Shown piece by piece: positions 13,593-17,493 of a stretch of DNA of 20,349 bases. Location of the stretch: positions 1 to 20,349 of the forward strand of contig JBMNQN010000016.1 of NCBI GenBank assembly GCA_050944155.1, written 5' to 3'. The stretch is from Candidatus Methanomethylophilaceae archaeon. GTDB lineage: Archaea > Thermoplasmatota > Thermoplasmata > Methanomassiliicoccales > Methanomethylophilaceae. Positions within the stretch are counted from its first letter, which is position 1; each line of letters begins with the position of its first letter. Position numbers and translations under genes: made by a program. The notes beneath the pieces were generated by a model. It made no database searches, was not told where the DNA came from, and saw nothing but the letters and a program-made list of their open reading frames with translations.

Positions 13593-14228
13593 TCAGTTCG
13601 GGTAGTTGAATCCGAGTTTCTCGCAGCGTTTGATTATATCTTTCTGCGGTATTTCCTGATATCCGTCTTTTCCTATGTAGGCCATCAGGAAACCGTTGCC
13701 GCTGTAAACGTCTCTCTGCCTTGCGGAGTTGAGGGCGGTGATTGCGGCATCGATCGCTTCGTCTTTGGTCATGTTTTCCTTGAAGGATGCTTCGAGGGAA
13801 CCGAGGGCGAACACGGAACCGGAACCCGTGGAAGTGTAGTCGCTTTCAAGGTATCCGCCGGCGCCGTCTATGCTGTAGACGTGGCCTCCCGTTTCGTCGT
13901 ATCCTCCGACGATGAGTCCGAGATAGAAGCCCTGGCGTATGACGTTGGCAACCAGGGTCGCAGCCGAGTGGACGGAAATGTTTTTGCCTTTTTTCATGGA
14001 GTACAGCGCGATTTCGGCGTTCATGTATCTGACCATGAGCTGTGCGTCGCCCACCGAACCGGCAATGGTCATGCCTACGTTCTCCGCGATGGGGTAAACT
14101 TTTCTGACGTCTTTGTTGGCAATCATGTGTCCCATTGTCGCTCTCTGATCCGTGGCGAGTATGACACCGTCTTTCGTTCTTATTCCGATGGTGGTCGTAC
14201 CGGTCTTGAGAGTCTCTTCGTTTGTCAT
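13593..14228 (-). CDS. psmB: Proteasome subunit beta
   Basis: Short propeptide followed by KTG|TTTIG with the catalytic Thr. AGSVGDAQ, STGSGS, RDVYSG. Lies upstream of aCPSF1, as is common in archaea. Confidence 0.96.
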   Translation of the reverse strand: MTNEETLKTGTTTIGIRTKDGVILATDQRATMGHMIANKDVRKVYPIAENVGMTIAGSVGDAQLMVRYMNAEIALYSMKKGKNISVHSAATLVANVIRQGFYLGLIVGGYDETGGHVYSIDGAGGYLESDYTSTGSGSVFALGSLEASFKENMTKDEAIDAAITALNSARQRDVYSGNGFLMAYIGKDGYQEIPQKDIIKRCEKLGFNYPN

Positions 14229-14400
14229 TTATCGTACCTCAGATGTTCTGAAAATAAAATCCGGTCTGTCTGACCTGTATTCGGAGATTCATTCGTTGTT
14301 TAAATAACTTGTTTTTTTCGGGCAGTTTCCGGAAAGATTTATTATTCCACATAATATAACAAATATTGCAGCTGGAAGCTGCGACTGTGAAGGGAATTAT

Positions 14401-15114
14401 ATGGAAAGCGCACAAATCAAAGCGTATGTTGCCGAACTTTTCGGTACCATGGTTCTGACGCTCGTGGGATGAGGTGTTGCGGTATACACCGGCGACGTGG
14501 TCGCCACGGCACTCGCTTTCGGTCTTTCGATCGTTGCGATGGCATACTGCATCGGAGACCGCTCGGGATGCCACATCAATCCCGCGGTATCTCTTGCTCT
14601 CCGCGTCGACGACAGAATCGACACGAAAACCATGATCTGTTACTGGATATTCCAGTTCCTCGGCGGTATAATCGGTGCGGGACTTCTGTACTACATCGCA
14701 ACCGCGACCGGAGGTGTCATCGTCGACGATTTCGGAACCATAATATCCGGACTGGGAACCAACGGATTCGAGGGACAGGGCGTATATAAAATCACGATGG
14801 CAGGAGCCATAATCGTCGAAATCATCCTTACGATGATTTTCACCCTGACCGTTCTGGGCGTTACCTAGAAGCAGAAGACCGCCGCACAGGCCGGATTCGC
14901 AATAGGCGGAAGCCTTACGTCCGTCCACCTGATAGGAATCAACCTCACCGGAACTTCCGTCAACCCCGCGAGAAGCCTCGGACCCGCGATATTCCTCGCG
15001 GTCGCCGGAACCACCATCGCTCTCGAGCAAGTCTGGGTATTCATCCTCGCGCCGTTCGTCGGAGCGCTGATTGCCGGATTCCTCTACAAGTACGTGTTCA
15101 GGACCGAAGAGTGA
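14401..15114 (+). CDS. aqpZ: MIP-family aquaporin (AqpZ-like), 237 codons, with in-frame TGA (codon 24) and TAG (codon 156): recoded gene or recent pseudogene
   Basis: Manual translation in one frame: MESAQIKAYVAELFGTMVLTLVG*GVAV...SGCHINPAVSL...VEIILTMIFTLTVLGVT*KQKTAAQAGFAIG...VHLIGINLTGTSVNPARSLGPA...QVWVFILAPFVGALIAGFLYKYVFRTEE*. RBS-like GAAGGGA upstream. Family identity is secure, functional status is not. Confidence 0.88.
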
Positions 15115-15120
15115 ATTCCT

Positions 15121-15150
15121 GCCGTTTCCGGACGGTTTCAAACCTCTTTT
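15121..15150 (+). terminator. Hairpin plus pyrimidine tract downstream of the aquaporin gene
   Basis: GCCGT-TTCCGG-ACGGT followed by CAAACCTCTTTT and further T-tracts. Confidence 0.5.
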
Positions 15151-15188
15151 CTTTATCATTTTTCTTTGGATTTTTCGAACGGAAAATA

Positions 15189-15207
15189 ATTGGATATATA
15201 ATCCAAT
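15189..15207. promoter_or_regulatory. Perfect inverted repeat overlapping the TATA-like box of nrdJ (candidate operator)
   Basis: ATTGGAT-ATATA-ATCCAAT, ending 51 nt upstream of the nrdJ ATG. Confidence 0.5.
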
Positions 15208-15258
15208 GCGATACATGTTATTAACCAGCAGTCTATCCCCCTCAAAGGGAGAAAATCA

Positions 15259-17493
15259 ATGGAAGTAGAAGATTGGCTCGGCAGGGATAACCAGCTCGGA
15301 ATCGACATATGGCAGAAGAAATACTGCCACAACGGCGAATCCTTCGATCATTGGCTGGACAGGGTTTCCGACGGAAACAGAGACATACGAAGACTCATCG
15401 TCGAGAAAAAATTCCTTTTCGGAGGCCGTATCCTTTCCAACAGAACCCTCGAACGGACCGGTCTCAAAGTCACGTATTCCAACTGCTACGTTCTGACTCC
15501 TCCCGAAGATTCCATCGAATCCATATTCGAAGCCGCGGGCAAACTTGCGAGAACGTTCAGCTACGGCGGCGGAGTGGGAATCGATCTTTCCAAACTCGCC
15601 CCCAGGGGAGCCAAGATAAACAATACCGCATCCGAAACTTCCGGTTCCGTCTCTTTCACGGATCTTTATTCAATGGTCACCGGCCTGATAGGACAGCACG
15701 GACGCCGCGGCGCCCTTATGCTTTCTCTGTCCTGCGAACACCCCGACCTCGAAGAATTCGCGGCCGTGAAAACGGATTTGGAAAGAGTCACCAAAGCCAA
15801 CATGTCCATCAGAATGACCGACGAGTTCATGAACGCGGTCAAAGACAAAAAAATATTCACCCAGAGGTTTACCAGACCCGAAACCGGCGAAGAAACCGTA
15901 AAAGAACTGGACGCCGACGCGTTTTTCAAGAAAATGTGCAGCGCCAACTGGGATTACGGAGAGCCGGGATGTCTGTTCTGGGACAGGATTTCCGACTGGA
16001 ACCTTCTCAGCGAATTCCCGAATTACGAATACGCCGGCACCAACCCCTGTGCGGAAGAACCTCTTCCCGCGGGAGGAAGCTGTCTCCTGGGAAGTCTGAA
16101 TCTTTCGGCTTTCGTCAAGGACGGACTGTTTGCCGAAGAAGAATTCCGGGACGCGGTACGCATAGCGGTCCGCGGTCTGAACGAAGTTCTCGACGCGGGT
16201 CTTCCCCTGCATCCTCTCGAAGAGCAGAGAGACTCGGTGTTCAAATGGAGGCAGATCGGACTGGGAATAATGGGTCTCGCCGACCTTCTCATAAAACTCA
16301 GGCTCAGATACGGTTCCGAAGAAGCAGTGGAATTCTGCGACAGACTCGGGTTCATAATGGCGGACACGGCGATAAACGAATCCGCCCGTCTTGCCAAGGA
16401 AGAGGGAATGTTCCCCGAATGCGTGATAGAAAACATTCTCGCTTCCCCGTACTTCAAGGCGAACACCACCCAGGAGACGAGAGACCTGGTATCTCAGTAC
16501 GGACTGAGGCATTCCCAGCTTCTTACGATAGCCCCCACAGGAACGCTTTCCACCATGCTGGGTATTTCCGGGGGAATCGAACCCATATTCGCCAACTACT
16601 ACGAACGCAGAACCGTGTCCCTCTCTAACAAAGACGAGTACTACAAAGTGTACACGCCCATAGTCAAAGAATACATGGACAATCACGGGTACGACGACGA
16701 TTCCGAACTCCCCGACTATTTCGTCAACGCGCAGATTCTGGATTACAAACAGCGCCTCGACATGCAGGCGGCGTGGCAGAACCACATCGACGCGTCCATA
16801 AGTTCCACCGTAAACCTTCACGCCGAGTTCCCCGAAGAGGACGTGGAAGGCCTTTACATGTACGCCTGGGAGAAAGGCTGCAAAGGTGTGACCGTTTTCA
16901 GGGACGGGTGCAAGCGCGACAGCATTCTCACCCCCAAGAAATCCGAAGAGGAAACCAAGAAAGAGAAGGAAGAGGAAGACGCCAAGAAGAAACGCGGTTC
17001 GGTTCTCGAGGTCGCGGACGACGTGGTGGGAAAGAAACGCAAACTGATGACCGGCTGCGGAAGCCTGCACTGTACGGCGTTCTTCGATCCCGAATCCGGA
17101 GATCTGGTGGAAGCGTATCTCAACAAAGGATCCACCGGCGGATGCAACAACTTCATGATTGGACTTTCCAGAATGATTTCTCTGGCGGCAAGAAGCGGAT
17201 GCGACATATATGCCATAGTGGACCAGCTCAAAAGCTGCGGTTCCTGTCCTTCGTACACCGTGCGTACGTTCACGAAACACGATACCAGCAAAGGTTCCTG
17301 CTGCCCCATGGCGGTGGGCTACGCACTGGTCGACATGTGGAAGGAGATGCAGGTCGAAGTCAAAGGCGTCGAGAACGTACCCTCGGAGCCGGTCAGGAAA
17401 GTCATCAATCCGTGTCCCAAATGCGGTTCCGAACTGGAATTCCAGGGCGGGTGCAACGTGTGCAAGGCATGCGGCTGGACCAAGTGTGATTAA
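15259..17493 (+). CDS. nrdJ: Adenosylcobalamin-dependent (class II) ribonucleotide reductase
   Basis: FLFGGR, YSNCYV, GGGVG, RRGALM, TNPCAEEPL (thiyl radical Cys), SCLLGSLNL, TIAPTGT, ISSTVN, KGVTVFRDG. C-terminal TSCPD-like Cys-rich domain and CPKC...CKACGWTKC zinc ribbon. No nrdB adjacent. Confidence 0.93.
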   Translation: MEVEDWLGRDNQLGIDIWQKKYCHNGESFDHWLDRVSDGNRDIRRLIVEKKFLFGGRILSNRTLERTGLKVTYSNCYVLTPPEDSIESIFEAAGKLARTFSYGGGVGIDLSKLAPRGAKINNTASETSGSVSFTDLYSMVTGLIGQHGRRGALMLSLSCEHPDLEEFAAVKTDLERVTKANMSIRMTDEFMNAVKDKKIFTQRFTRPETGEETVKELDADAFFKKMCSANWDYGEPGCLFWDRISDWNLLSEFPNYEYAGTNPCAEEPLPAGGSCLLGSLNLSAFVKDGLFAEEEFRDAVRIAVRGLNEVLDAGLPLHPLEEQRDSVFKWRQIGLGIMGLADLLIKLRLRYGSEEAVEFCDRLGFIMADTAINESARLAKEEGMFPECVIENILASPYFKANTTQETRDLVSQYGLRHSQLLTIAPTGTLSTMLGISGGIEPIFANYYERRTVSLSNKDEYYKVYTPIVKEYMDNHGYDDDSELPDYFVNAQILDYKQRLDMQAAWQNHIDASISSTVNLHAEFPEEDVEGLYMYAWEKGCKGVTVFRDGCKRDSILTPKKSEEETKKEKEEEDAKKKRGSVLEVADDVVGKKRKLMTGCGSLHCTAFFDPESGDLVEAYLNKGSTGGCNNFMIGLSRMISLAARSGCDIYAIVDQLKSCGSCPSYTVRTFTKHDTSKGSCCPMAVGYALVDMWKEMQVEVKGVENVPSEPVRKVINPCPKCGSELEFQGGCNVCKACGWTKCD

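Follow-up and report, generated by a model that had tools for sequence, protein, structure and literature searches.

Among the known systems closest to the locus described below are the genes with an in-frame TAG, other than methyltransferase genes, of 'Ca. Methanomethylophilus alvus', a species that has a pyrrolysine (Pyl) cassette and in which TAG makes up only 1.6% of stops. In the excerpted text of that study, these genes gained TAG in place of a sense codon while their orthologues lack it, and a new in-frame TAG in Pyl lineages could be a stable, tolerated Pyl codon (PMC4153887, Borrel et al. 2014). Selenoprotein genes of the Methanococcales type carry an in-frame TGA at a Cys-homologous position. 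As lineages that combine selenocysteine (Sec) with Pyl, the portion of a 2022 review at hand names only Sifarchaeia, Desulfobacterota and Bathyarchaeota (PMC9499178). Unitary pseudogenes of reductive genome evolution, finally, are marked by derived single-base stops in an intact frame, a promoter that is kept, and parallel decay or deletion of the same gene in relatives.

The locus described here resembles each of these in part. The window, that is, the whole stretch of DNA analysed, is the complete contig C16 (20,349 nucleotides) of a metagenome-assembled genome, G000 (1,039,042 bases in 27 contigs, rated 92.36% complete and 0.05% contaminated), and it carries an aquaporin frame interrupted by one TGA and one TAG. 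Its host is a methanogen of the Methanomassiliicoccales type that has a small genome and uses pyrrolysine; this order is not among the Sec and Pyl lineages named above. Like Methanococcales-type selenoprotein genes, the frame has its TGA at a Cys-homologous position; unlike archaeal selenoprotein genes, it has this codon away from any redox active centre and does not share it with its orthologues, and no tRNA-Sec, SepSecS, selD or SECIS element was detected. Like the TAG genes of 'Ca. M. alvus', as far as the excerpted text describes them, it shows a change from sense codon to TAG in a host that has a Pyl cassette and very seldom uses TAG as a stop, but here the TAG is unfixed, being CAG elsewhere in the species, and lies behind a TGA (PMC4153887). 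With unitary pseudogenes it shares the derived single-base stops, the apparently kept promoter, the probable transcription and the parallel losses in relatives, and it departs from them in nothing essential, the one twist being that one of its stops, the TAG, may not fully stop translation in a Pyl-decoding host. The initial annotation proposed a channel recoded at both stops, with a young pseudogene or an assembly error as fallbacks. We conclude that the locus is very probably an AqpZ-like aquaporin gene that has recently become a unitary pseudogene, caught in the course of parallel gene loss.

An AqpZ-like aquaporin frame with two stops

The frame (14401-15114, + strand) runs from an ATG at 14401 to a TGA at 15112-15114 and comprises 237 codons without indels. 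Its only internal stops are TGA at 14470-14472 (codon 24) and TAG at 14866-14868 (codon 156), so that an uninterrupted channel-coding frame is lacking. With X placed at both stops, the Pfam MIP profile PF00230 matches residues 4-229 over model positions 6-222 of 222 (E 2.5e-45), spanning the six-helix MIP domain whole and placing the frame in this family. Both NPA motifs are kept (N60-P61-A62 and N188-P189-A190-R191) and are invariant among close relatives. The same is true of F40, H176, T185 and R191, which align with Phe/His/Thr/Arg of AqpZ and which we take to be an AqpZ-type selectivity filter. The frame, its motifs and its pore residues thus stand as the initial annotation described them.

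The best solved relatives of the read-through frame are aquaporin Z chains (1rc2 and 8h1d among them; E 8.3e-36), and in the alignment to the AqpZ structure X24 stands opposite a Cys and X156 opposite a loop Asp. The best NCBIfam model is likewise aquaporin Z (NF003838), at 191.6 bits under a cut-off of 256, and an intact orthologue (P0003) also falls below this cut-off at 195 bits. Since both scores lie under the equivalog cut-off, we class the protein with AqpZ-like MIPs of archaea and not with AqpZ itself. It is like AqpZ in its two NPA motifs and its Phe/His/Thr/Arg pore residues, and unlike AqpZ in its broken frame and sub-threshold score.

Besides the profile and structure matches, the assignment draws on the genomic slot. 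The frame lies between the proteasome subunit gene psmB (13593-14228, - strand; PF00227, E 1.1e-54) upstream and the ribonucleotide reductase gene RNR (15259-17493, + strand; PF02867, E 2.6e-99) downstream, which serve as synteny anchors. Before the ATG, an AT-rich, TATA-like stretch and a purine-rich GAAGGGA (14337-14399, + strand) can be read directly as a putative promoter and RBS, and both still look intact. On the other side, a terminator-like element had been reported. A scan for hairpin-type terminators downstream of the frame found none, and what can be kept of the claim is a T-rich tract 3' of the stop (about 15146-15167, + strand, read directly), which is a possible archaeal terminator.

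Both stops occur in environmental DNA

A 1300-base stretch at the aquaporin locus is present in 20 of the 24 public runs listed; these belong to 15 studies, in which biogas, landfill, sludge and digester metagenomes were sequenced. In three DNA runs from three studies (X1, X2 and X3, with summed contig depths of 43, 2.7-10 and 624), contigs span both stop codons and show no difference from the window there; one of these runs may be the window's own source, and at least two are independent. Because both stops recur across these studies, they are real DNA, and the assembly error held in reserve by the initial annotation is excluded. A fourth study contributes an RNA library, X16, with a 746-base contig over 14378-15101. 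This contig keeps TGA24, which is therefore found in contigs of all four runs compared, and reads C at 14866, making codon 156 CAG (Gln) and not TAG.

Origin of the stops and variation within the species

Codon 24 is TGC in G001, another species of the genus, TGT in the outgroup G019 and Cys in a sister-species cluster (P0002), whereas more distant homologues have Val and TGA is found in the window's species only. Codon 156 is Gln in the sister-species cluster and in six same-species variants, and N, S or D in the other orthologues. TGA24 thus derives from a Cys codon (TGC/TGT) by one substitution, and TAG156 derives from CAG by a single C-to-T change (position 14866, where X16 has the alternative base) and, being polymorphic, is the younger lesion and a second hit. 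Each stop is accordingly one substitution from sense, as had been noted, while the recurrence in related genomes that recoding should leave behind was not found for either stop in the orthologues.

A search of 5.8 billion proteins gave, among the best 120 of 7962 matches, no full-length match above 90% identity. The sole match above 90% among these 120 is a cluster of 205-aa proteins at 98-99% identity, with six distinct members on 21 contigs from three sources. All six begin at an in-frame GTG (14497-14499, + strand) past TGA24 and carry Gln156, so that this GTG is the start chosen by gene callers for truncated calls in strains without the TAG. The sister-species cluster, in comparison, has 225 aa at 87-89% identity with both Cys24 and Gln156. 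Its members P0002, P0126 and P0127 are called from window residue 13, either because they lack the first 12 codons or because they use another start. P0127 has a C-terminus identical to the window's, but over its N-terminal two-thirds it matches the sister species, a hint that the two lineages have recombined.

TGA24 is seen directly in all five DNA-level haplotypes of the species, and its presence in the six 205-aa variants is deduced from their start point together with the X16 contig. The five haplotypes differ at four synonymous and four non-synonymous sites (pN/pS roughly 0.35), changes too few to separate neutrality from constraint, although they lean towards relaxed constraint. The non-synonymous differences are G41S, *156Q, A161V and S174F, of which G41S affects a residue invariant in all six aligned homologues, and the 205-aa variants add I142T, V202A and T206A.

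Several polar residues at usually hydrophobic sites had been offered as signs of decay. R68, Q163 and S171 are invariant in the intact orthologues and are thus no sign of decay, but S174 is a real derived change, since F is the residue in all close orthologues and in most variants of the species. Across codons 156, 161 and 174 (14866, 14882 and 14921) the haplotypes are Q-A-F, Q-V-F, Q-V-S, stop-A-S and stop-A-F. The occurrence of S174 on two backgrounds requires either recombination within about 55 bp or recurrent mutation in the species.

Parallel loss of the aquaporin across the genus

Among the 15 other species of the genus, six have an aquaporin match, always in the psmB-RNR slot. G001 retains an intact gene of 238 aa, 76-77% identical to the window's, in a psmB-RNR spacer of 1041 bp. 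Compared with G001, the window's genome has in-frame length differences of 3, 3 and 9 nt in addition to its two stops (spacer 1030 bp); G014 has gained 4 nt, lost 1 nt and acquired a TAA (1035 bp); G009 has five indels with a TAA and a TAG (1010 bp); and G012 has lost about 270 nt and has a TGA (705 bp). In G013 and G006, heavy deletion has left one and the same remnant of about 65 codons (spacer 639 bp). The aquaporin is gone from G004, G010 and G003, where the spacer measures 293, 296 and 283 bp, respectively. In G015, G002, G008 and G007 the RNR gene lies outside the 1.5 kb retrieved and no aquaporin was found, and a contig end interrupts the locus in G005 and G011. The tally for the 15 species is one intact copy, five broken, three deleted in situ and six unresolved or rearranged.

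The broken copies differ in their lesions except for G013 and G006, which have one in common, and none of the lesions of the window's genome is shared by another species of the genus. Judging from these lesions, the aquaporin is being lost repeatedly and in parallel across the genus, and its loss in relatives marks it as dispensable. Position 653 of the G001 gene is deleted in both G014 and G009, in different lengths.

A probable young unitary pseudogene

Within this series, the window's copy combines lesions that are derived with respect to intact orthologues with their presence in real DNA, as is characteristic of a pseudogene. The polymorphism of TAG156 within the species and the genus-wide decay series favour the young pseudogene that the initial annotation kept as a fallback. 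In the sequence of events we propose, a Cys codon at position 24 (TGC/TGT) would have mutated to TGA, the main stop codon of a host with no detectable means of reading it, so that translation would end after 23 residues; this allele would then have spread through the species. The dead but still transcribed gene would have gathered neutral changes, one of them the conversion of codon 156 from CAG to TAG. The amino-acid changes at conserved sites that now segregate among strains would be part of the same process. As TAG156 lies behind TGA24 and is not fixed, it is more simply explained as a neutral second hit than as a new Pyl site. A functional channel is presumably no longer made, and the loss of the gene may reflect its dispensability in the niche.

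Some features do not fit a pseudogene easily. The frame is otherwise perfect, as it keeps both NPA motifs and the pore residues and lacks any frameshift, the long-term dN/dS is low, there is no excess of changes specific to G000, and the locus is probably transcribed. The dN/dS between G000 and G001 is 0.147 at a dS of 1.05, and against the outgroup G019 there are nine unique residue changes in G000 and 12 in G001, with no frameshifts. The low ratio and the lack of excess changes indicate normal constraint for nearly all of the gene's history and a recent break. A functional read-through gene would look the same, so neither dN/dS nor the change counts can show relaxed constraint. The initial annotation had linked decay to stops unique to this strain and a dN/dS near 1; the ratio is not near 1, as expected for a recent lesion, and TGA24 is seen in this species only.

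Thus, what looks like double recoding by Sec and Pyl is most probably an ordinary young pseudogene, mildly unusual only because the host decodes Pyl and the second stop is a TAG that is still polymorphic. Its value is modest and lies in the natural gene-loss series that it completes in reduced-genome methanogens of digesters and landfills, where one syntenic slot presents every state from the intact gene, through copies with nonsense changes only, frameshifts or partial deletion, to complete loss.

Transcription and possible residual function

The alternative that retains the most weight, while unlikely, is that the locus keeps a partial function, either through a leaky TGA24 combined with Pyl insertion at TAG156, or through re-initiation at GTG 14497. 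The second route would give a product with some role, 205 aa long or, where a strain carries the TAG, 123 aa. Transcription is relevant to this reading and is suggested by X16, whose depth is 42.9 on the aquaporin gene and 36.6 on the adjoining proteasome gene and falls to 0 in the intergenic bins 14277-14364 and 15113-15244, both of which are covered by the DNA runs. The X16 evidence consists of contigs, which neither prove transcription nor map transcript ends, but the pattern hints that the aquaporin locus is still transcribed as a unit of its own, and its promoter probably still fires.

Apart from probable transcription, residual function would be in keeping with the persistence of TGA24 in haplotypes whose frame is otherwise open in every case seen, with the GTG-started 205-aa frame that gene callers pick, and with Pyl decoding, which on the excerpted evidence from 'Ca. 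M. alvus' probably makes TAG leaky (PMC4153887). Against it, no suppressor tRNA was found in the genome and TGA ends most of its genes. The predicted product of GTG 14497 would miss the first transmembrane helix of the six-helix fold, and we know of no functional MIP form without this helix. Moreover, the gene is dispensable, being deleted or broken in most species of the genus, and non-conservative polymorphisms are accumulating in it.

Within this alternative, a narrower version is less likely still: the aquaporin would not be fully dead, with TAG156 read as Pyl, in line with the proposal made for new in-frame TAGs of related gut methanogens, and TGA24 bypassed rarely by near-cognate tRNA-Cys or tRNA-Trp, giving a strongly down-tuned channel. 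If true, such a channel could account for a frame that stayed otherwise perfect during the spread of TGA24 through the species.

Pyrrolysine and the meaning of TAG

Of the Pyl genes that the initial annotation suggested looking for, pylT, pylS and pylD were found in the genome. On contig C25, tRNA-Pyl (anticodon CTA) lies at C25:636-706 (relaxed ARAGORN), and pylS and pylD score 273.6 bits (cut-off 178) and 204.9 bits (cut-off 150), respectively; two ORFs between pylS and pylD are taken as pylB and pylC by position alone. The Pyl system therefore looks complete, and TAG could in principle be read in G000. The only trace of mtmB is a C-terminal piece at the edge of C25, and a search of the 92%-complete assembly for mttB gave nothing, so that the genome offers no known Pyl codon for inspection. 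The ORF at the expected place of pylB (C25:1561-2617, + strand) ends in TAG, the very codon read by Pyl decoding, and the cluster's next ORF follows directly.

Stop usage was counted over 841 crude, long, non-overlapping ORFs, which end in TGA in 581 cases (69%), TAA in 236 and TAG in 24 (2.9%). TGA is accordingly the main, working terminator in G000, and there is strong avoidance of TAG. Given so small a share of TAG stops and the presence of a Pyl system, TAG156 alone is no proof of inactivation. This calls for caution in annotating Pyl-using archaea, where an in-frame TAG may be tolerated as a codon for Pyl or may be a further lesion of a gene already dead, two cases that only population and orthologue comparison separates.

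Places where the coding signal crosses a stop were screened across G000 by codon bias, on a crude gene set. The strict screen returned 20 places. Eighteen with TGA and one with TAA are adjacent genes, in which a start codon follows 0-5 codons on, and the aquaporin TAG156 is the only one of the 20 without a nearby restart codon. TGA24 itself ranked 37th, below the threshold, and the screen leaves room for other pseudogenes. Of the 63 candidates in a loose screen, 10 were retrieved and nine of these were run through Pfam (L062 was left out); eight gave no family, most of them resembling antisense frames, and one proved to be two adjacent genes. One of the loose-screen loci, L054 (C15:2192-3820, + strand), is a protein-like frame of 543 codons with an in-frame TAG at codon 143 and no restart nearby. 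It has an N-terminal hydrophobic stretch and repeat-like domains and gave no Pfam family; either its TAG is read as Pyl or this may be a further broken gene.

Selenocysteine and the meaning of TGA

A doubly recoded channel, in which TGA24 is Sec, TAG156 is Pyl and full-length protein is made only when both systems are active, can draw on the Cys-homologous position of TGA24, on an otherwise intact frame, and on pylT, pylS and pylD together with the rarity of TAG stops. Its Pyl half finds the machinery it needs; its Sec half does not. The best tRNA-Sec score in G000 is 38.7 bits against a cut-off of 47, the matches being ordinary tRNAs, the best selD score is 66.3 bits against 125, and SepSecS (PF05889) has no match, although in a genome only 92% complete such absences from this assembly alone are not conclusive. 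The survey was extended to the order for tRNA-Sec and SepSecS, with selD searched in G000. Neither tRNA-Sec above cut-off nor SepSecS (TIGR03531) occurs in any of the 41 same-order genomes (G000 and 40 relatives), while the positive control, Methanocaldococcus (M. jannaschii), was recovered. Likewise, no Rfam SECIS-type family matches 14200-15400 at E values up to 10. G000 has no tRNA with a TCA anticodon, its tRNA-Trp has CCA, and no suppressor tRNA was found in it.

Other ways of reading TGA fare no better. Sec recoding of TGA24 is rejected, since no tRNA-Sec, SepSecS or selD exceeds its cut-off in G000 and no tRNA with a TCA anticodon was found. Genome-wide reassignment of TGA is rejected as well, because TGA is the main stop and the sites where coding signal crosses it are adjacent genes with restarts. 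A programmed frameshift at the GGA-TGA-G of codon 24 was judged by eye: a -1 slip enters an ORF at 14469-14789 and does not restore the channel.

Together with the failure to detect Sec machinery, the main-stop role of TGA, the failure of either stop to be kept in orthologues, the polymorphism of TAG156 with CAG, and the absence of the window's order among the Sec and Pyl lineages in the consulted portion of the review (PMC9499178) make the double recoding claimed by the initial annotation exceedingly improbable. The two stops are better accounted for as successive lesions of a young pseudogene.

Equally negligible is the notion that a sequencing or assembly error conceals an intact gene: the window does come from a 27-contig metagenome-assembled genome, and a 1-base length difference in a T run at 15170 shows that its assembly is imperfect, but both stops are reproduced in the three DNA runs at the depths given above, TGA24 is also in the RNA-library contig of a fourth study, and the 205-aa frame past the TGA is called on 21 database contigs. 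At 15170, within that T-rich run, one base of the window is absent from the contigs of all three DNA runs, which may reflect an extra T in the window assembly or a difference between strains.
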